A stretch of DNA of 64,000 bases, from IMG/VR virus record IMGVR_UViG_3300029288_006769, positions 186,367-250,366 of that record. One strand, 5' to 3'. Positions 42-47,283 of the stretch are shown here, in pieces. The DNA is from a virus. The notes under the pieces were generated by a model. It ran no database searches. It saw only the letters and a list, made by a program, of their open reading frames with translations, and was not told the origin of the DNA. Each line of letters begins with the position of its first letter. The stretch's first letter is position 1. Position numbers and translations under genes: made by a program.

Positions 42-506
42 TTATTCATTTATTTCGATTTTAAAACAGTAAGGCTGATGTATAAGCATACTTACACCAT
101 CTGATGAAACATGATAAAACCCAAGTTTCTCTGGGCCTTCAACGAGATAACATAAATCTTTACGAACATTTGCAACAGTATTTTTTAAAATTCTAAGATT
201 TATAATGTTAATATCAAGTTCTGGAGGAATTATCAGTGTAGGGTTAACCAATTCTTCTATAATTGCACTTATAGCAAGTACTAATTCATCTTTTTTGTAA
301 GCTAAATCAAAACCAGAACACACATTCAGCATTGAAACAAACAAAAAATCTGTATGTATAATTTTTTCAAAATAATCGGGGATAATAATAGGAGTTATAT
401 CGTCACAAAAGCCTGACACTTTTGTGTAGAGCACTGGGATATCTGAAAATTTGTAATAGATTTTTGATTCCTGTTTTGCTAAACATTGCGTATAAAGTTC
501 ACTCAT
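42..506 (-). CDS. hypothetical protein
   Basis: 154-aa minus-strand ORF from the track, same orientation as all neighbours; no recognisable motif. Confidence 0.4.
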   Translation of the reverse strand: MSELYTQCLAKQESKIYYKFSDIPVLYTKVSGFCDDITPIIIPDYFEKIIHTDFLFVSMLNVCSGFDLAYKKDELVLAISAIIEELVNPTLIIPPELDINIINLRILKNTVANVRKDLCYLVEGPEKLGFYHVSSDGVSMLIHQPYCFKIEINE

Positions 507-550
507 ATAACTCCTTTTAGTTTTTTATATCTACAACCTCGTTTAGCATA

Positions 551-590
551 AACAAAAAAGGCGTTTATAGTTATACCTATAGAACGCCCT
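551..590 (-). terminator. rho-independent terminator hairpin
   Basis: GGCGTTCTATAG..CTATAAACGCC stem followed by a T6 run on the minus strand, directly downstream of the flotillin gene; near-identical copy at 2725-2762. Confidence 0.55.
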
Positions 591-612
591 CAATACGCTA
601 GAGAAATTCTCG

Positions 613-2085
613 TTAAACTTTGTCGGTATTTGTTTCGTTTGTACCGTCAAATAAACCTTTGGTGGTCACACCAATTTTGTTTAACAAGCCACTGATATCG
701 AATCCCATTTGACTCATGACTTCCTGGAGCATTCCGAGATTCTTTGGTACCTGACCTGCAAATTTTTGCATACCACTTTGACCATTTGCTGAATCGATAA
801 TAACTACTTTATCAATTGCAGAAAGCGGTTGTGCAGCTTCTCTTACAATTGCAGGGAATTTCTCTAATATGCTTGGTAATTTTTCGAGAATCATCTGAAA
901 TTGTCCTGCATCATCAAGCTGTTTGTAAGCTTCAGCTTTTTTCATAAGACCTTCAGCTTCACCGACGAGTCGGGCTTTTATTGCAGCACCTTCAGCTTCA
1001 CCAATTGCTAAAATTCTTGCGGCTTGTCCTTCACCTTCCAGAACTAATTTGCTCTTTTCGGCTTCAGCATTTTTGATTGTCGCACCTTTTTCACCTTCTG
1101 CTCTAGCAACTCTAGCTGCAGCTTCTTTTTCTGCGGGCACGACTTTTTTTGCTTGTTCTTCTTTTTCAGCAACAAGAATCATTTGTTCTTGAACTGCAAT
1201 GTTCGCTCTTTGACGAGCTTCTTCGATACCAACCTGAGCTTTTGTAACTTCCTGCATTGCTTCAGCTTCTGATCTTGGACCTGCTTGTTCTGCACGTGCT
1301 CTCTCGGCTGCAACCAATGCATCAAATGTTGCTTTTTTCACATCGCGTTCTTTATTAGCTTCAAATGTGAGAGCATCATTTTGTGCAGCAACAACATTTC
1401 CGTCTTTTTGAGCTGTAGTAGCTTGTTGTTTGGCTTCCTTGTCAGCATTTGCTTGACCAATAGAAGCGTCTCTCATAACTTCAGCAGTACGTTTCTTACC
1501 TAAAGATTCGATATACCCTGCATCATCAGTGATACTTTGAATATTTAAGATATCAATTCCCACACCAATTTTTCCAAGCTCGCCATCAGCTTCGGATTTT
1601 ACCTTGTTATTAAGAGCTTCACGATCTTTTATCAACTGTTCAATAGACATAGTACCAATTACAGAACGTAATTGGCCTTCAAGGTTTTCTTGAACTGTTA
1701 TATGGATGTCATTATCTTTTTTTCCCAAAAATCTTTCAACAGCAGCATTGAGCGATGCTTGATCGCTTTTAATTTTGCATGTTGCGACTGCATCAATGTT
1801 CACTTTGACGCCATCTAAGTTAGGGATCCCTTTAAGAGGCATTTTCAATTGAAAAGCCGCCATATCCATAACTTGATAGTCTTCAATAACGGGCCATTTG
1901 AATTTTGCACCGCCGGTTACAACAACAAAACCCTTGTCCAGATGTTTTCTTCCGAAAAACACTGCAGCTTTGTTAGGTGGTACTTTGATGTAATTTTTTG
2001 CAAGTAATGCAATTACAACAATTAATGCAACAACGGCTCCGACAACAACAATTAATGGTAAAATTTTTGAAAAATCAAAACCCAT
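613..2085 (-). CDS. flotillin-like SPFH/band-7 protein (YqiK/FloA family)
   Basis: N-terminal TM helix, SPFH domain, then a long Ala/Glu-rich coiled-coil flotillin repeat region; strong RBS AAGGAGATTAAAATG. Confidence 0.85.
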   Translation of the reverse strand: MGFDFSKILPLIVVVGAVVALIVVIALLAKNYIKVPPNKAAVFFGRKHLDKGFVVVTGGAKFKWPVIEDYQVMDMAAFQLKMPLKGIPNLDGVKVNIDAVATCKIKSDQASLNAAVERFLGKKDNDIHITVQENLEGQLRSVIGTMSIEQLIKDREALNNKVKSEADGELGKIGVGIDILNIQSITDDAGYIESLGKKRTAEVMRDASIGQANADKEAKQQATTAQKDGNVVAAQNDALTFEANKERDVKKATFDALVAAERARAEQAGPRSEAEAMQEVTKAQVGIEEARQRANIAVQEQMILVAEKEEQAKKVVPAEKEAAARVARAEGEKGATIKNAEAEKSKLVLEGEGQAARILAIGEAEGAAIKARLVGEAEGLMKKAEAYKQLDDAGQFQMILEKLPSILEKFPAIVREAAQPLSAIDKVVIIDSANGQSGMQKFAGQVPKNLGMLQEVMSQMGFDISGLLNKIGVTTKGLFDGTNETNTDKV

Positions 2086-7121: not shown

Positions 7122-7292
7122 TTAGTCCATCCTATACAGTTCTTTATCTAGTTCAGCAAAGTCGACAGGTTTGCCTGCAATGCCTTTAGCAAGATTTTTC
7201 GCTGATTCATCTATCATTTGTAGCGTATTTGCCGAAATCTGATCGAGCGCCTGTATTGTAGACTTCACATCGGTTTTTCTGTTATCTTTCAT
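7122..7292 (-). CDS. small ORF translationally coupled to the upstream protease gene
   Basis: 56-aa ORF MKDNRKTDVKSTIQALDQ...; its ATG overlaps the protease stop (ATGA); not in the track because it is under 60 aa. Confidence 0.35.
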   Translation of the reverse strand: MKDNRKTDVKSTIQALDQISANTLQMIDESAKNLAKGIAGKPVDFAELDKELYRMD

Positions 7293-8296
7293 AATGTACA
7301 ACCAAAAGCATTGAAAACATTATTTATTCTATTTACTATAGTAGTTGTGTCACTACCAGCAAATAAAAGACCTACAAGATAAGTACCCGAACAAACTGCT
7401 GAACCACTATCTCCGGGTTGACTAAACGAACCTTCTGAAGATGTTATTGATATTTGATCACTAAAAATAGCGGTCTTGTTTGTCCCATAACTTACTTGTG
7501 TTGTTACATCAATCTGATCAACTACACCTTTTGTGTATCCTGTTGTTCTACCCTGCTTATGAACTTCCATTCCTAATTCTATCTCTTTAACTCCAATAAT
7601 AGGGCCGATTCCTCTTATTTCTTGCAATACATCAGCTTCATTTAATGGCTTTGCAAGAGCAGCATCGACTAAATTTGTTGTTGCTTCTAAACTATAAGCT
7701 TTCAAACGGCTTTTTCTACCTAGAATAAATGAAAGGAAATTAAGAAAACCTGCACTACCTGTAGCAATAGGACAGTCAGTTCCTTGTAAACCATTTTCAA
7801 TAAAATTTACAGGTACAAATTCACTAAGTGTTCCAATTTGGTCTTTTTCAGTTCCTTTATCATAAGGCCCTGGTTGCAGTATTGCATCCCCTACTTTACC
7901 ATCATTACTATTTGCAAGTACATGATTGTTAGAAAGAATCATTAATTGTCCGTTTTTTCGAACAACACACCCAAGCGTGCCAGCTGTAATAGCATAATGT
8001 CCAATACTATCACCACCTAATGCTGGTCTCTGTTTTGTTGTATTGCTTTGAGCTTTTATGATTCCTGTTTGTACAACATCTGTGGGTATACCATTTATCT
8101 GCTCTGGGATAAGATCTTTTTCGGATAGTGATTCTTTGGTCTTCTTTTGTTCGACTGAACAAATAATAGAAAGTTTGTCGGTCTTTTTACCTTTAGAAGT
8201 CTTATAACCAATACCTAGACTTACAACATTGGCTTTCGACAATAAAACTTTTTTCGAAGCAACATCAAATCCTTTTCGAACATCATTGATATGCAT
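7289..8296 (-). CDS. trypsin-like (S1 family) serine protease
   Basis: GDSGSAV catalytic-Ser motif and an NHV His region; start moved to Met10 because of the RBS AAAGGAGACTATATG. Confidence 0.7.
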   Translation of the reverse strand: MHINDVRKGFDVASKKVLLSKANVVSLGIGYKTSKGKKTDKLSIICSVEQKKTKESLSEKDLIPEQINGIPTDVVQTGIIKAQSNTTKQRPALGGDSIGHYAITAGTLGCVVRKNGQLMILSNNHVLANSNDGKVGDAILQPGPYDKGTEKDQIGTLSEFVPVNFIENGLQGTDCPIATGSAGFLNFLSFILGRKSRLKAYSLEATTNLVDAALAKPLNEADVLQEIRGIGPIIGVKEIELGMEVHKQGRTTGYTKGVVDQIDVTTQVSYGTNKTAIFSDQISITSSEGSFSQPGDSGSAVCSGTYLVGLLFAGSDTTTIVNRINNVFNAFGCTL

Positions 8297-8340
8297 ATAG
8301 TCTCCTTTTTGAATGCATAACAAGATGTCTTATAAAAACT

Positions 8341-11470: not shown

Positions 11471-12313
11471 TTATAAGATTTCTAATAGAGCAGCTTCTAC
11501 GTCTTGAGTAAGAGTTACATCACCCTCATCAAGCCCAAAGTGCTCAAGAATTGTATCCATAGTCAAATCGCAAAGTGCATCTTGCCAATCGCCAACAAAA
11601 TAATACCGAGTAGATTCCTTTATCACTCCACAAAGTATCGGATCTTTCTTCTCGGCTTGTGTTTTTTCGACAGCTTTGTTGTCCGGATCTGTATGTATTA
11701 CGACAAAATCATCAAATAACATTTTTTCTCTTGCAACTTCCATACGTTCACGAATATCTTTAGGAATGAGACGAATATAGTTTTTAATTGGAGTAATTTT
11801 GATTATTCGATTTTGAACGCTTTCAACAAAAGCTTGTAGTATTTCTTTTTCAAAATATTTGTCGAAGCCACATGCAATCATTTCTTGCTCTCTGAGAAAT
11901 TTTCCAAATTTTTCATGTATTTTTTCTTTTAAAGCGATCTGGTTTGTGATAGCGGTAGATTCGAGAATAGATGCGACTTTTTCGAGACGCTGAGATAGTT
12001 CACGTCTCTCCATAGGTTTGAATCTGTCTTTTAAAAACTTAAAAACGACAACAGGTTTTAGAAGATTTTTAATCCTATTTCTTGGATGATTTGCATCTTG
12101 TATAGCACCTTTTTGCTTTTTAGGCAATCGAATTGCTCGCTTTACCCATTTCTTACCATCATTATCAGATTTATCGGATTCGTCATCTGAATAATTTATT
12201 GAATCAGTGACATAAATACTTGTATCAGAAGGAGTAAAAAATGAAAAAGTACCTGAAGTAGATGCACTTGAAACATAATGACTACCGGAAGGTATTGTTG
12301 TCATAGATATCAT
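11471..12313 (-). CDS. hypothetical protein
   Basis: 280-aa ORF. Confidence 0.5.
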   Translation of the reverse strand: MISMTTIPSGSHYVSSASTSGTFSFFTPSDTSIYVTDSINYSDDESDKSDNDGKKWVKRAIRLPKKQKGAIQDANHPRNRIKNLLKPVVVFKFLKDRFKPMERRELSQRLEKVASILESTAITNQIALKEKIHEKFGKFLREQEMIACGFDKYFEKEILQAFVESVQNRIIKITPIKNYIRLIPKDIRERMEVAREKMLFDDFVVIHTDPDNKAVEKTQAEKKDPILCGVIKESTRYYFVGDWQDALCDLTMDTILEHFGLDEGDVTLTQDVEAALLEIL

Positions 12314-13280: not shown

Positions 13281-13311
13281 GATGGTTTATATACAAGAAA
13301 TCTAAAACAAA

Positions 13312-13346
13312 AACAAAAAAGGCCCGGGTTATTGCGTCCCCGGACC
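13312..13346 (-). terminator. rho-independent terminator downstream of the tmRNA
   Basis: minus strand GGTCCGGGGACGCAATAACCCGGGCC (8-bp GC stem) followed by TTTTTTGTTTTTG. Confidence 0.5.
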
Positions 13347-13385
13347 CTCAACAGAAGAGCTGTGTGGCTCCATAAAGGAATTTAA

Positions 13386-13781
13386 TGGAGGCGACGGGAG
13401 TCGAACCCGTGTCCAGAAAACGATCCATGACAATCACTACATGCTTATCTCAGTTTTAATACTCCAACACACTAACTGGGCAAACAATGCTATTGGAGTG
13501 CAAGAACGTAACTTCGGTCCCCTTCTCTCTCTTGCGATTCGGATTCCCTATTCGTGTCTGTAAAAGATTCGGCTCACACGACTGCACCAGAATCTTTTGT
13601 TGCTTTTAATTAAGCAACGACTGAATTCGCAACACCCAAGCGAACATTGTTCGCAAAAGCGAGAGCGAATTTTACTGCATAATTGTTGGCAATTATGTTT
13701 TTCCGGATTTTTACGAGGCCATCCAGACCCTCGGCATGCGACTGGCAATTCACATAATCTGTCGAAAACCGATACGCCCCC
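13386..13781 (-). ncRNA. ssrA: tmRNA (SsrA), one-piece
   Basis: minus-strand 5' end GGGGGCGTATCGGTTTTCGACAG...GCATGCCGAGGG..TGGCCTCGTAAAAA.CCG.AAAAA matches the conserved tmRNA 5' domain; 3' end GGGTTCGACTCCCGTCGCCTCCA forms the T-arm and acceptor; the 7-bp acceptor stem has a G3:U70 Ala identity pair; resume codon GCC at nt 92; tag ORF ends at a TAA inside the TTGCTTAATTAAAAGCAA hairpin; CCA is not encoded. Confidence 0.85.
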
Positions 13782-13799
13782 TAATTTTCAAAGACCACA

Positions 13800-13828
13800 A
13801 TTATAAAATACCATAAAATATCAAACAA
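13800..13828 (-). promoter_or_regulatory. sigma-70-type promoter for the tmRNA
   Basis: minus strand TTGTTT, 17-nt spacer, TATAAT, about 18 nt before the mature 5' end, consistent with a precursor processed by RNase P. Confidence 0.45.
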
Positions 13829-21030: not shown

Positions 21031-22299
21031 TTAAGTTGCAAAAGTTGCAATAAGAGGAGAAATGTATTGATTATCTAACAAATAATCTTCTTGCTTCATA
21101 GAATATAGACTTACTTTAATATTTGGTATTGTCTTAAAATAATCAAACATTAAAGAAGAGGTCTTGTTCTCCACAAGCTTAAAATCCCCATATACCATAG
21201 GTATTTTTCTATAACTCAAACCTTCAATCTTAATTAATTTTGCAGACTTTATATCGCGATCTTCTTCAAATCCACAAACATGACACTTAAACATTCTTTC
21301 ACTTAAAGTAAATTTTGTTTTTGAACTACATAAAGGACATATTTGCGTTGAAGGAAAGTAACGATCCACAAAAATTGTCTTAGATGTTTTTCTTAATTCA
21401 TCTAATATTCGTCCAATTATTGTAGAACTTATTTTTCTTCCATACAAACGTTGCCATCCTACTAAATTATCGTTTTGAATGCAAATAAAATCAAAATTGT
21501 TCTTTAAGTAACTAGTTATCTTGTTTGAGACATCTTCTTTTTGATTGTTTATTTTTAAATATTCTTTTCTGATTTTCATCCTGGACTTAAACTTGTTTTT
21601 AGAATTTCTAATTTGTCTAGAAATCTTTTTTTGTATTAATCTTATTTTATTGTTTTTGAAAGTAGTATCAATTTTAATTCCATTTGAAAAATTTAAAATA
21701 TTCTTAATACCTAAATCACATCCAATTGTTTGATTCGATATAGATCGTTCTTGTTTTTGTTGAAAAGTAGTAATATGAAAAAAGAAACTAAAAGGTTTTC
21801 TTATAAGTCTTATACTAGAAATTTCTGAATTTTCTGGTATTTGCTTTAATCCTCTTACTTTAAAAACTTTTTTATAATTTTCAATTTTTATCGAATTAGA
21901 TTTTACATACATATTACCTGGAATAGAATTTATTTCGCTTTTAAATTTTAATTTTCCTACTTTTTCGTTTTTTTTCTTTTTTGTTGCAAGTCCTTTTATA
22001 TTATAAATTATTTTTTGATAAATCTTTGCTCTCATAGAACTACTCAAATGTCTTAAATCTTTCTCTTCAAACTCTCTTTCTTTATTCATTACAGAAACTT
22101 TTTTTAACTTGCAATCAACAGAAAAAATATTTTTTTGAGATAAACAAAAATTATACCACCATTTTGCTTCAAGAAACAATCTGTTAAGAAATTCCAATTT
22201 GTCTTTTGATAATCTTGACATATCGATTTTTACTTCATAAATTTTACAAAGTTGTTTTTTTCTCTTTTCTTTTGTTGATTGACTTTGGATAAAAGACAT
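21031..22299 (-). CDS. tnpB: TnpB-like RuvC nuclease (IS200/IS605 OrfB family)
   Basis: N-terminal OrfB HTH-like helix (WWYNFCL); RuvC-I GCDLGIKN; RuvC-II region IQNDNL (Asp where Glu is usual); zinc finger CPLC..CHVC; RuvC-III DRDIKSAKLI. Confidence 0.8.
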   Translation of the reverse strand: MSFIQSQSTKEKRKKQLCKIYEVKIDMSRLSKDKLEFLNRLFLEAKWWYNFCLSQKNIFSVDCKLKKVSVMNKEREFEEKDLRHLSSSMRAKIYQKIIYNIKGLATKKKKNEKVGKLKFKSEINSIPGNMYVKSNSIKIENYKKVFKVRGLKQIPENSEISSIRLIRKPFSFFFHITTFQQKQERSISNQTIGCDLGIKNILNFSNGIKIDTTFKNNKIRLIQKKISRQIRNSKNKFKSRMKIRKEYLKINNQKEDVSNKITSYLKNNFDFICIQNDNLVGWQRLYGRKISSTIIGRILDELRKTSKTIFVDRYFPSTQICPLCSSKTKFTLSERMFKCHVCGFEEDRDIKSAKLIKIEGLSYRKIPMVYGDFKLVENKTSSLMFDYFKTIPNIKVSLYSMKQEDYLLDNQYISPLIATFAT

Positions 22300-45249: not shown

Positions 45250-45997
45250 ATGTTTTCTTATATTGACAGAAAAAACAATCCTTTGTTCTCTGATTGAATT
45301 TGGGCTCTTTTAAAAAATCCTTTTTCGAAATTCTTTCGAGCATATTATTGACTTGCCTAAATAAAATCTCAAAATCTTCTTCAGTGCGTTGGGTGAACAA
45401 GATTTCACCATCGATCGGATATGCTAGTGCACCATGTATTGAATCAAGCGAATATTTATATAATTCCCTCACAAAAAAACTATAAAAAGTTAATTGTATA
45501 TTCTTGTCAATTTCTTTTTCTTTACTTTTTGATGTTTTCCAATCAAGACAGACAATCTCGTCATTCGCTAAAAGCATATCTATACGACCTGTAAGATGCA
45601 CATCGTCTAAAAAATGATTAATAAAAGGTATTTTACAATATTTCTCTATTTCAAGAATTTTAAAACTGCTCCAACGACTCTTCATTTTTTTGACGTTTTC
45701 TATTTGCAATCTTCCTTTTGCTATAGAATCTTCAAGTTCCTTTGAATTAGGAAAAGGTAGATTCTTTGCTTCGGTGCAAAAAGCTATAAACAATGAGGGC
45801 CATGCAGCAGAAATTTCGTCAAGACTCAGACCAAATTTGAAATGCAATTCAAGTGCTTTATGGAGTGTAGAACCAAAAGTCGTGAAAAGATATGCTTCAT
45901 CAGGTGTTCTCTCATCTAAAAACTGCCATTTATACATCTGAGAACATCTGAAAAAAGAAGATAAAGATGATGCAGAAACAGTTACTTGTGTTCTCAT
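45221..45997 (-). CDS. PD-(D/E)XK nuclease with C-terminal Cys cluster (Cas4/RecB-like)
   Basis: GRIDML...DWKTSK core and C-terminal CFFCQYKKTC. Confidence 0.6.
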   Translation of the reverse strand: MRTQVTVSASSLSSFFRCSQMYKWQFLDERTPDEAYLFTTFGSTLHKALELHFKFGLSLDEISAAWPSLFIAFCTEAKNLPFPNSKELEDSIAKGRLQIENVKKMKSRWSSFKILEIEKYCKIPFINHFLDDVHLTGRIDMLLANDEIVCLDWKTSKSKEKEIDKNIQLTFYSFFVRELYKYSLDSIHGALAYPIDGEILFTQRTEEDFEILFRQVNNMLERISKKDFLKEPKFNQRTKDCFFCQYKKTCAKNDDREL

Positions 45998-47283
45998 TTT
46001 ACCTCATTCAAAAGAAATTCAATTGTTTTTTCGTTCAAAGCAGCTGTCCGCATCAATTCGAATTGTTGTTTATTAGTTTTTAGTTCTTCCTTGATTTTTG
46101 TCTGACGATCAACATCATGTTTAAGCATACTTGAAATTTGCATTGCATAGGTAACAATTTCATCATCTGTCACCAATATCCCAAAATCTTTTGCAACCTG
46201 TTCGAGTACTAAAGCAGCTTTAATAGACTCTATAGAACGTTGTGTATAATGATCAAAGAAACCCTCTTTAGAAACTTTTTCTTTTGCAATCTGTTCTTCA
46301 GTTTTTCCAATGCGTTTTAAAAACGCATTCCATTCTTTTTCATTTTCTCGATCTATCATTACTTTGGGTATTGGTGTGATATTCGAATTATTGATAACAG
46401 ATAACAGCACTTGCTTTTTAAAAGTTTCTTTTGCATTATTCTCTTTCTCTTCAGCAAATTTAAGTCTTAAATTTTCTTCATACAATTTGATTGTGTCAAA
46501 CCCTTTTGATTTTGCAAATTGTTCATTATATTCAGGAATTATTTTGTCTTTGATTGCTTTAAGAGTAACAGTAAAAATAGCTTTTTTACCAGCTAGTGTT
46601 GTTTCTCTATAATTTGTCGGGAATGTTACAAATATTTGTCTTGTCTCTTCTTTCTTCATCCCAATGAGCTGATCTTCAAAATTGTCTATAAATTGTTTTT
46701 GTCCATTTATGATTTCATTTATTTTTATCTGATAACCTTTAGCAACACCACCCTTAAAAGGCGTTGCTTCACCTTCAAGTCTGCCTTCGAAATCGATTAC
46801 AGCAATATCAAAATTTTCTAATGATTCTTTTTCAGAATCAAGTATGATTTCGCTTTTCTTTACTTCCATTGTTATCTTATCTCTAAATTCATTTTCTGTC
46901 AGTATAGATTCGGGCTTTTCGATCTTGATTGCGTTTAGAACTGGTAAGCTGATCAAAGGTTTTATTTCAGCAACAAATTCGATAGTAAAAGATGATTTTT
47001 TCTTTAAATCACCAAAAAATTTAAAATCAGCAGAAGAAACAATATTGGGTTCTACATTCACAATGTCATGAAAAATTTGATCAACCATAGGTTTATAAAG
47101 TCGTTCAATTCTTAAACGACTTTCAGCAACATCCCGAGGAACATTTCCTTTTCTGAAACCTGGAATCTCTATATTACTTTTTACTTTGTCATAGCATTCT
47201 TTTTTTCTTGTTTCAACATCATCGGGGTCTAATGTCACAATGTATTTCACTGGTGCAGGCATTGCTTCTGTTTTAATGTTCAT
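45994..47283 (-). CDS. tig: trigger factor (ribosome-associated chaperone/PPIase) homolog
   Basis: ribosome-binding signature GFRKGNVP near residue 40, central FKBP-like PPIase region (GG..KG...I..I..G..FI..FE..L.G....ET....V.FP..Y....LAGK.A.F.V.L), 429 aa as in bacterial TF. Confidence 0.8.
   Translation of the reverse strand: MNIKTEAMPAPVKYIVTLDPDDVETRKKECYDKVKSNIEIPGFRKGNVPRDVAESRLRIERLYKPMVDQIFHDIVNVEPNIVSSADFKFFGDLKKKSSFTIEFVAEIKPLISLPVLNAIKIEKPESILTENEFRDKITMEVKKSEIILDSEKESLENFDIAVIDFEGRLEGEATPFKGGVAKGYQIKINEIINGQKQFIDNFEDQLIGMKKEETRQIFVTFPTNYRETTLAGKKAIFTVTLKAIKDKIIPEYNEQFAKSKGFDTIKLYEENLRLKFAEEKENNAKETFKKQVLLSVINNSNITPIPKVMIDRENEKEWNAFLKRIGKTEEQIAKEKVSKEGFFDHYTQRSIESIKAALVLEQVAKDFGILVTDDEIVTYAMQISSMLKHDVDRQTKIKEELKTNKQQFELMRTAALNEKTIEFLLNEVK

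Follow-up and report, generated by a model that had tools for sequence, protein, structure and literature searches.

A phage-borne tmRNA lineage with a hairpin inside an extended tag reading frame

We describe a tmRNA gene in a 64-kb stretch of viral DNA, positions 186,367 to 250,366 of IMG/VR record IMGVR_UViG_3300029288_006769; this whole stretch is called the window below. We find that the window holds a complete one-piece tmRNA (ssrA) gene that is carried by a phage and has its own terminator. Very probably, in our judgement, it is the functional tmRNA gene of a very large (jumbo-class) phage. Phage tmRNAs, the long tags of Mycoplasma and introns in the T-loop are known already; what appears to be new, from comparison of related contigs, is a structural variant in which a conserved and apparently translated hairpin lies inside the tag reading frame, with tags of 26-28 residues, across a clade of large phages. 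No such in-frame tag hairpin is described in the phage-tmRNA and tmRNA literature that we consulted.

The tmRNA gene and the conservation of its fold

ARAGORN calls a one-piece tmRNA of 396 nt at 13386..13781 on the minus strand, the sole tmRNA in the 64-kb window, with a coding part at nt 92-172 that encodes ANNYAVKFALAFANNVRLGVANSVVA followed by a stop. The same region (13383..13781, minus strand) matches the Rfam tmRNA model RF00023 over model positions 1-374 of 374 with 147 bits, against a gathering score of 47 bits, and E = 9.6e-58; RF00023 is the only Rfam family detected across the 64 kb. A chance match is excluded because of this E-value and because the RNA is conserved in seven other contigs. 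The match to the standard model is colinear and full-length, so the gene is not a permuted (two-piece) tmRNA, and its T-loop is continuous, with no match to the group I intron model RF00028 in the window, so it is not the intron-bearing form either. Its structural elements, including the pseudoknots PK1, PK2 and PK4 and one stem of PK3, are as follows.

13386..13781, minus strand: tmRNA gene, 396 nt, with the mature 5' G at 13781 and the discriminator A at 13386 (ARAGORN, RF00023 and seven relatives)
13775..13781, minus strand: 5' strand of the 7-bp acceptor stem, GGGGGCG, with partner CGCCUCC at 13387-13393 and the G3:U70 pair (cognate-duplex p = 0.0002)
13702..13733, minus strand: PK1, CGAGG/CCUCG and UCUGGAU/AUCCGGA, stems covarying in 8 RNAs (p = 0.0066 and 0.0002)
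13599..13618, minus strand: helix 5, GUUGCUU-AAUUAA-AAGCAAC, with the stop codon in its loop (RF00023, duplex test and RNAalifold)
13552-13597, minus strand: PK2, cognate versus non-cognate duplexes, stems 1 and 2 (p < 0.0002)
13500-13535, minus strand: second stem of PK3 (duplex test, p = 0.0044)
13451-13499, minus strand: PK4, stems 1 and 2 (duplex test, p = 0.0002)
13394..13410, minus strand: T-arm, ACGGG-UUCGACU-CCCGU (sequence, RF00023 and duplex test)

Most of this architecture had been proposed in an earlier note on the same DNA. The complete ssrA-like RNA of about 396 nt, the 7-bp acceptor stem with G3:U70 (GGGGGCG/CGCCUCC-A), the T-arm after the acceptor core and a stop codon in a helix loop (UAA at 13612-13610) are all present. 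Likewise, ARAGORN and RF00023 place the GCC resume codon at nt 92, where the note had put it; its remark that this position is as in E. coli does not hold, the E. coli resume codon being at nt 90. The note had also raised the possibility of a host-derived fragment with a truncated 5' end. Instead, the 5' end is intact and the gene is syntenic in another viral contig. At the 3' end the window gene reads CCUCCA-UUA; CCA is not encoded and would have to be added post-transcriptionally.

Searches with a flanking protein and with conserved tmRNA motifs recovered seven further distinct tmRNAs of the same lineage, all above the Rfam threshold, on the contigs listed below with the tags that they encode.

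L001/L002, 194.6-kb IMG/VR contig: VNKIAVNFALAFANNVRLGMANTIVA
L005, activated-sludge contig: VNKIAVDFALAFANNVRLGIANTIVA
L016, 210 kb: AKDYAVKFALAFADNISLGVASSIAA
L004, the same as L006, metagenome contigs: AKKVAVDFALAFANNVRLSMASAIAA
L003, 62.8-kb IMG/VR contig: AKTVNAGIRFAMQFAAMCEMAMPVAAVA
L012, 416-kb IMG/VR contig: ANKIGSVFGAQFALQFAAMCAKAPAMAA
L017, 85.9 kb: ANTGAVLGAKFATQFAVLCGLTSQVSVA

The related IMG/VR viral contigs range from 62 to 416 kb. Synteny between L001, the closest relative, and the window extends to both sides of the tmRNA (53% identity for the upstream protein; 44%, E = 9e-13, for the small downstream one). A first motif from the PK3 region was too strict and missed L003, and an exact 35-mer across PK1 had 0 matches in viral contigs. 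Coding or GC-rich DNA accounted for four chance matches to the looser motif GAGAAGGKGACCGAARTNAC (L013, L014, L015 and L018), which were discarded after inspection. Among 50,697 phage records, neither blastn in distant mode with the tmRNA nor megablast with 25 kb gave any match, which sets the window apart from the known phage tmRNAs and points to a divergent, uncultivated lineage. As a separate observation, L005 encodes the 3' CCA (L005:217-219, minus strand; …CCUCCA-CCA), unlike the window and the other six members.

To ask how far the fold is conserved we relied on a register-free test. A whole-molecule MAFFT alignment had register errors at the 5' end and in the T-arm, and column-wise covariation was dropped; for each helix we instead compared the duplex energy of a member's own two strands with that of strands mixed between members. 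Across the 8 RNAs, own-strand duplexes are more stable (permutation p = 0.0000-0.017) for the acceptor stem, the two segments of helix 2, helix 5, the T arm, the second stem of PK3 and each stem of PK1, PK2 and PK4. Every stem of PK1, PK2 and PK4, together with helix 2, reaches p <= 0.0066. Compensatory replacements are many: for example, ACUCCAAUA/UGUUGGAGU versus GUUCUUUUA/UAAAAGAAU in PK4, and GCAAGA/UCUUGC versus GCAUAA/UUAUGC and others in the second stem of PK3 (p = 0.0044). In the window the strands of PK1 read GCAUGCCGAGG...GGCCUCGUAAAAAUCCGGA. The earlier note had expected all four pseudoknots to fold, and this holds for both stems of PK1, PK2 and PK4 and for the second stem of PK3, leaving out the first stem of PK3. 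Based on these patterns and on those in the tag below, we propose with high confidence that this is a phage-borne tmRNA lineage that selection has probably kept for a long time. Eight diverged copies with purifying selection on both the fold and the peptide make it a tractable case.

The tag reading frame and its internal hairpin

Two overlapping features occupy the region between PK1 and helix 5.

13610..13690, minus strand: tag reading frame, 26 codons, encoding ANNYAVKFALAFANNVRLGVANSVVA, with the resume codon GCC at 13690-13688 and the stop codon UAA at 13612-13610
13624..13671, minus strand: three-tier hairpin within the tag frame, AAUUCGC/GCGAAUU, CGCUU/GGGUG and GCGAAC-AAU-GUUCGC

The frame is open in all 8 RNAs: after the aligned resume site it extends, with that codon counted, over 26 or 28 codons before the stop in helix 5. 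Substitution statistics were taken from the five 26-codon members. In these, the variable columns of the tag are distributed 11/4/21 over the three codon positions (chi-square p = 0.002), while in the non-coding PK2-PK4 region, our control, the distribution is 31/29/36 (p = 0.67). The pN/pS ratio lies between 0.18 and 0.61 in 10/10 pairs. As judged from these substitutions and from the context of the resume codon, the 26-codon tag is genuine, and its translation starts at the first of the two resume sites. Selection on the peptide suggests that tagging itself, and not only the release of ribosomes, matters to the phage.

The choice of resume site requires some care, given that GCN-AAC-AAU is present twice in the window RNA. 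Resumption at the second copy, GCG-AAC-AAU at codon 13, would produce the shorter tag ANNVRLGVANSVVA, and a 14-residue tag is nearer typical lengths. We regard this as extremely unlikely. The first site lies 11 nt past PK1, whereas the second is 47 nt away and sits within the apical stem of the inner hairpin; ARAGORN and Rfam align the first to the consensus resume codon in every member. Just 5' of the first resume codon, [U/C]AA[U/C]U is conserved (UAAUU in the window), and positions -6 to +1 are known to fix the resume point via SmpB (PMC3985003); the second site lacks this UAAYU context, and in L016 it is not ANN (GCU GAU AAU). Moreover, codons 5-12, which lie upstream of the second site, vary synonymously only, with the exception of codon 7. 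The tag had previously been called long or ambiguous: it is indeed long, at 26 codons, but the almost exclusively synonymous change in codons 5-12 settles the ambiguity for the first site. In L001 and L005 the resume codon is the valine codon GUC. Valine resume codons have precedent, with GUA in H. pylori and a GUC that works in E. coli (PMC2862035).

In the cmscan alignment the reading frame has ~50 extra nt relative to the Rfam consensus, and the hairpin makes up most of this insertion. The minimum free energy of the window's tag region has z = -3.5. In the five 26-codon members, RNAalifold predicts 17 hairpin pairs, of which 5 show compensatory double changes. For the whole structure, 98.3% of cells are paired versus 35-44% when the partners are slid, and there are 7 double-change pairs versus 3.4 +/- 1.1 after shuffling (1/500 reach seven) and 0-2 after sliding. 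For instance, the apical GCGAAC/GUUCGC has become GCUGAU/AUCAGU in L016, which changes N-V-R to D-I-S and keeps the pairing. In the three 28-codon members a hairpin of much the same size forms, again with UUCGC...GCGAA paired at its base. Codon periodicity is also found within the paired columns (5/1/11, p = 0.02). Given covariation and codon periodicity in the same columns, the hairpin segment is, on this comparative evidence, constrained both as RNA structure and as coding sequence, and would be a compact natural example of the two constraints acting simultaneously. We tentatively suggest that the folded hairpin may keep the enlarged coding region compact, so that the geometry of the pseudoknot ring stays normal until the ribosome reads through. 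This suggests a rule for how a tmRNA coding region could grow without disturbing that ring.

The C-termini of the eight tags are VVA, IVA, IVA, IAA, IAA, AVA, MAA and SVA; all consist of hydrophobic or small residue(s) followed by a terminal alanine, and 3/8 end in -AA. The -VVA ending of the window, whose conservation in relatives the earlier note had left to be checked, is thus one variant among VVA, IVA, IAA, AVA, MAA and SVA. The proposal that -VVA serves to evade host proteases finds no support, as the family's endings overlap with ordinary degrons. For comparison, the ALAA end of the ordinary tag is recognised by ClpXP and ClpAP (PMC3985003). The tag is hydrophobic and aromatic-rich, and its internal core FALAFANNVRLG is better conserved than its C-terminus.

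Proposed role and comparison with known systems

We propose the following model for the tmRNA in infected cells. It would be transcribed as its own unit, ending at the intrinsic terminator, then trimmed and given its CCA by host enzymes, and charged with alanine by the host alanyl-tRNA synthetase (AlaRS) via G3:U70. Host SmpB and EF-Tu would bring the RNA to ribosomes stalled on broken or non-stop mRNAs. Translation would resume at GCC (nt 92) and proceed through 26 codons, with the in-frame hairpin unwound en route, and would stop at the UAA in the loop of helix 5, freeing the ribosome and leaving the 27-residue hydrophobic tag (A)ANNYAVKFALAFANNVRLGVANSVVA on the nascent chain. The phage might benefit from more free ribosomes and from disposal of truncated products in an infection that damages mRNA. 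In sequence, the RNA carries the features required for charging by AlaRS and for acting with SmpB and EF-Tu. Its expression and charging, its reliance on host SmpB, what becomes of tagged proteins and how the phage gains are inferred from sequence. The most likely role would be extra rescue capacity during infection, with the tagged fragments then removed. In a known example of phage dependence on this system, plating of lambda-immP22 falls ~10^4-10^5-fold when ssrA or smpB is missing, chiefly because ribosomes are not rescued (PMC2862035).

Two alternatives concern what the RNA does at the ribosome. In the first, it would serve chiefly as a decoy, titrating host SmpB or blocking host trans-translation, with the frame unused. 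The model here is DS6A, likewise a phage-borne tmRNA derivative: a DS6A-like molecule made of the tRNA-like domain only strongly inhibits tmRNA (PMC4131195, PMC11915505), and no phage SmpB is found in the window or in the flanks of its relatives. However, DS6A has no coding region and is thought to inhibit trans-translation (PMC4131195), whereas the window RNA keeps a frame under selection. The full mRNA-like domain, the resume context, the helix 5 stop, PK1, PK2, PK4 and the second stem of PK3 are all conserved, and the codon periodicity and pN/pS below 1 would be needless for a pure decoy. We consider this alternative highly improbable.

In the second, rescue would take place but the long tag would not be an ordinary ClpXP degron, and tagged proteins would meet another fate: a Lon-type or phage protease, sequestration in membranes or aggregates, or escape. 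This corresponds to the retagging idea of the earlier note, and it would refine the rescue model, not replace it. The 26 encoded residues compare with a modal 10 (PMC11915505), and the hydrophobic, aromatic-rich tag is most conserved in its core, not at its end. An extended tag ending in AFA has been switched to Lon in Mycoplasma, according to a passage in PMC3985003 that cites Gur & Sauer 2008 and Ge & Karzai 2009. The tag of phage G likewise ends in -QVA (PMC12484599). The phage also encodes a serine-protease homologue at 7289-8323 on the minus strand, ~5 kb downstream of the tmRNA (phrog_20754, 3.9e-67, with weak Nal1/Peptidase_S64 Pfam matches); to link it to the tag is pure speculation. 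Against an altered fate, the C-termini of the family are hydrophobic residue(s) plus alanine, with -AA in three of the eight, and so overlap with ordinary degrons. An altered fate is, in our view, unlikely. A broader version, which we hold to be distinctly doubtful, is that a clade of jumbo phages has remodelled the message of its tmRNA with a hairpin so that a phage-specific tag of ~27 residues reprogrammes the fate of rescued proteins. If so, tagged chains might be sent to another protease or adaptor, or the tag might mark or neutralise host or defence proteins, perhaps together with phage ribosome-associated factors such as the trigger-factor homologue of the window (described below). This would amount to viral control over the output of host translational quality control, beyond extra rescue capacity, and the significance of the system would be higher if the tag proves to redirect protein fate. 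The tag sequence is a direct mass-spectrometry handle on the proteins tagged in jumbo-phage infection.

The window RNA shares with the standard bacterial tmRNA (SsrA, RF00023) the tRNA-like domain with G3:U70, a long helix 2, PK1, a single-stranded resume region, a tag frame ending in the loop of helix 5, PK2, the second stem of PK3, PK4 and the T-arm. It differs in a reading frame that is ~50 nt longer and contains the covarying hairpin, in 26 encoded residues versus the modal 10 (PMC11915505), a ~2.6x difference, in a tag ending in -VVA as opposed to -LAA/-VAA, and in its location in a phage genome with no SmpB gene found nearby.

Among phages, tmRNAs are documented in phage G and Bxz1-like mycobacteriophages and, as the tRNA-like domain only, in DS6A (PMC4131195), as well as in huge phages (PMC7162821; see also PMC12484599). 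The phage G, Bxz1-like and huge-phage cases resemble ours in that a complete tmRNA is present in a large, lytic-type phage beside translation-related genes (PMC4131195, PMC7162821). The tag of phage G, AKLNITNNELQVA, ends in -VA like that of the window (PMC12484599), but the window tag is ~2x as long; some huge phages encode SmpB (PMC7162821), whereas none is found for the window. The genome-survey literature lists phage tmRNAs, and in the literature consulted no function is reported for a full-length one; the jumbo-phage reviews consulted do not mention tmRNA.

Outside phages, there is a likeness to the tags of Mycoplasma and Mesoplasma, which are also ~27 residues long, with a hydrophobic, aromatic-rich C-terminal part and no ALAA end (PMC3985003). 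The sequences are unrelated, however, and the switch to Lon in Mycoplasma is explained by the loss of ClpXP.

Three of the relatives add an observation on intron-form tmRNAs. T-loop group I introns occur in 883 bacterial tmRNAs, with a main site at 'position 7' (PMC11915505). We find a 227-240-nt group I intron (RF00028, 91-105 bits) in the T-loop of L003, L004/L006 and L012, inserted at the same 'position 7' site, between T-loop nucleotides 6 and 7 (exon ...GGGUUC[G/A]AU, intron ...GUG, then UCCC...); the window gene has no intron. The introns lie at L003:1444-1683 (minus strand), L006:~859-1085 (plus strand) and L012:~420-655 (minus strand), and ARAGORN misses all three intron-bearing tmRNAs. 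Intron-form tmRNAs have been reported for bacteria (PMC11915505). Here two of the three intron copies, those of L003 (62.8 kb) and L012 (416 kb), are on IMG/VR viral contigs, so that phages too have the intron form.

Phage setting, flanking signals and neighbouring genes

Several lines of evidence place the gene inside a phage genome. All of the long open reading frames (57/57) are on the strand of the tmRNA (minus), GC content is ~33%, and most neighbouring genes are ORFans. By PHROG and Pfam matches the window contains a replication and recombination module of T4-like phage type, with a DnaB-like helicase, a DnaG-like primase, UvsX/RecA, SbcC/SbcD, other helicases, a 5'-3' exonuclease, RuvC and a ligase-like protein. 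These phage replication genes and ORFans flank the tmRNA on both sides on the same strand, as is expected inside a phage genome. In addition, 504 deposited phage genomes, most of them from myoviruses of 150-180 kb, encode full-length homologues (~26% identity) of a 734-aa vWFA-type protein of the window, and the gene directly upstream of the tmRNA is also found on a contig of the 0.2-1 Mb size class. Samples ERZ27247363, ERZ27247358 and SRR6484325 contain this contig.

The contrary view is that the window is part of a bacterial chromosome or a megaplasmid and that what we see is the ssrA gene of the host itself, perhaps used as a site of integration. Indeed, ssrA is a common site of island integration (PMC11915505), large plasmids can carry translation genes (PMC7162821), and no capsid or terminase gene lies within the 64 kb. 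An island integrated into ssrA is expected to leave an att-like repeat, but a second copy of the tmRNA 3' end is found nowhere within the window, which argues against the integration-site interpretation. The one-strand arrangement of mostly ORFan genes and the phage-type replication module also speak against a bacterial replicon, as do the relatives, which are classed as viral contigs and are syntenic. Furthermore, the helix 5 sequence, common to several members, occurs in identical form in no tmRNA of the representative genomes of 185,579 bacterial and archaeal species; blastn against the 50,697 phage records was also empty, as would be the case if the lineage is simply divergent. We judge a bacterial origin of the window to be very unlikely.

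Some observations nonetheless weigh against a functional tmRNA gene of a jumbo phage. The 64-kb window contains no virion gene (capsid, terminase or structural), and an origin from a megaplasmid, though unlikely, has to be weighed in view of the similar translation genes that large plasmids carry (PMC7162821). Pfam, and tblastn with E. coli SmpB as the query, detected no SmpB gene in the window or in the flanks of the relatives; function would then depend on compatibility with the SmpB, AlaRS and RNase P of the host. No first stem of PK3 could be defined, with just 2-3 possible G:C pairs seen by eye. Conservation of the peptide could in part be a by-product of the constraint on the hairpin, although the paired columns also keep codon periodicity. 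Lastly, assignment of the promoter is uncertain, with an unconserved TATAAT and an upstream spacing of ~20 nt in L012. We consider these flanking signals together with the features below.

13823-13828 and 13800-13805, minus strand: promoter-like site proposed in the earlier note and present in the sequence, TTGTTT (13828-13823), 17 nt, TATAAT (13805-13800)
13788..13794, minus strand: upstream motif (G)TTCTTTGA, 7-8 nt before the mature 5' end, at a fixed distance in 7/8 family members
13308..13371, minus strand: 3' trailer predicted by folding, with a small hairpin at 13356-13371, then an intrinsic terminator stem at 13319-13348 and a U-run to 13308

The TTGTTT-17-TATAAT site exists as described, but the case for a promoter is weaker. 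Its -35 element agrees with the consensus at 3/6 positions only, a consensus promoter/terminator scan reported nothing on the minus strand, this site included, and TATAAT is not conserved in the relatives; the TTGTTTG portion is kept in the closest ones. The motif (G)TTCTTTGA is kept in the window, L001, L003, L004/L006, L005, L012 and L016, and is absent in L017. In L012 a terminator-like hairpin lies only ~20 nt upstream of the tmRNA, which suggests that (G)TTCTTTGA may be the core promoter, read by a host or phage sigma factor, or else a processing leader for RNase P. TTCTTTGA occurs just once on the gene strand of the window, without enrichment; TCTTTGAAA does not recur there as a promoter-like motif, and the combined TTGTTTG...TCTTTG pattern has no matches. 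The upstream motif, which contains TTTG, resembles the Bacteroidota -7 box. Shine-Dalgarno motifs are enriched 5' of the open reading frames (21/57 versus a 7.5% background), which argues weakly against a Bacteroidota host. Five bacterial genomes that matched a helix 5 20-mer were considered as a lead to the host and rejected, all matches being chance ones outside tmRNAs.

The GC-rich terminator that had been predicted after the RNA is borne out. It consists of an 11-bp GC-rich stem and a U-run (13348-13308), and the 78-nt trailer folds with -25.2 kcal/mol (z = -2.8); the trailer of L001, though different in sequence, is likewise laid out as two hairpins (z = -6.5). The consensus scan missed this terminator because its loop is 10 nt, and only folding recovered it.

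Other genes in the window bear on translation, transcription and mobility. A 429-aa protein with the full domain architecture of a trigger factor (45994-47283, minus strand; Trigger_N 1.7e-17, FKBP_C 5e-12, Trigger_C 1e-17) is encoded between the genes for the DnaB-like helicase and the primase, which gives this phage a second function associated with the ribosome. In phage records, tblastn with it finds few matches, ~28% identical and mostly on unannotated faecal 'Bacteriophage sp.' fragments, which are of little informative value. Smaller open reading frames have Pfam matches to NusG/KOW (1.2e-7), sigma-70 region 4 (1.6e-6), an NYN-domain RNase (1.3e-35), an HU-like DNA-binding protein and RuvC. 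With matches of this kind, the phage may drive some of its own transcription, a point that matters for the tmRNA promoter. A TnpB-like protein (OrfB_IS605 with a Cas12f1-like TNB domain) is encoded at 21031-22299 (minus strand), and a second transposase-like frame (phrog_10081) at 11471-12313 (minus strand), ~1 kb downstream of the tmRNA. Scans of the whole window also detected Intein_splicing (Pfam, 2e-14) and HNH/homing endonuclease families (PHROGs).

ARAGORN finds no tRNA gene in the window. In the relatives with 28-codon tags, tRNA arrays lie within a few kb of the tmRNA, at L003:6754-7236 (4 tRNAs), L012:3185-7539 (5) and L017:151-3529 (9). Directly downstream of the tmRNA in L003 (~1300-1422, minus strand), an open reading frame that begins MKTNVAILGGAFDPITVGH has, by eye, a candidate motif of nicotinate/nicotinamide-nucleotide adenylyltransferase.

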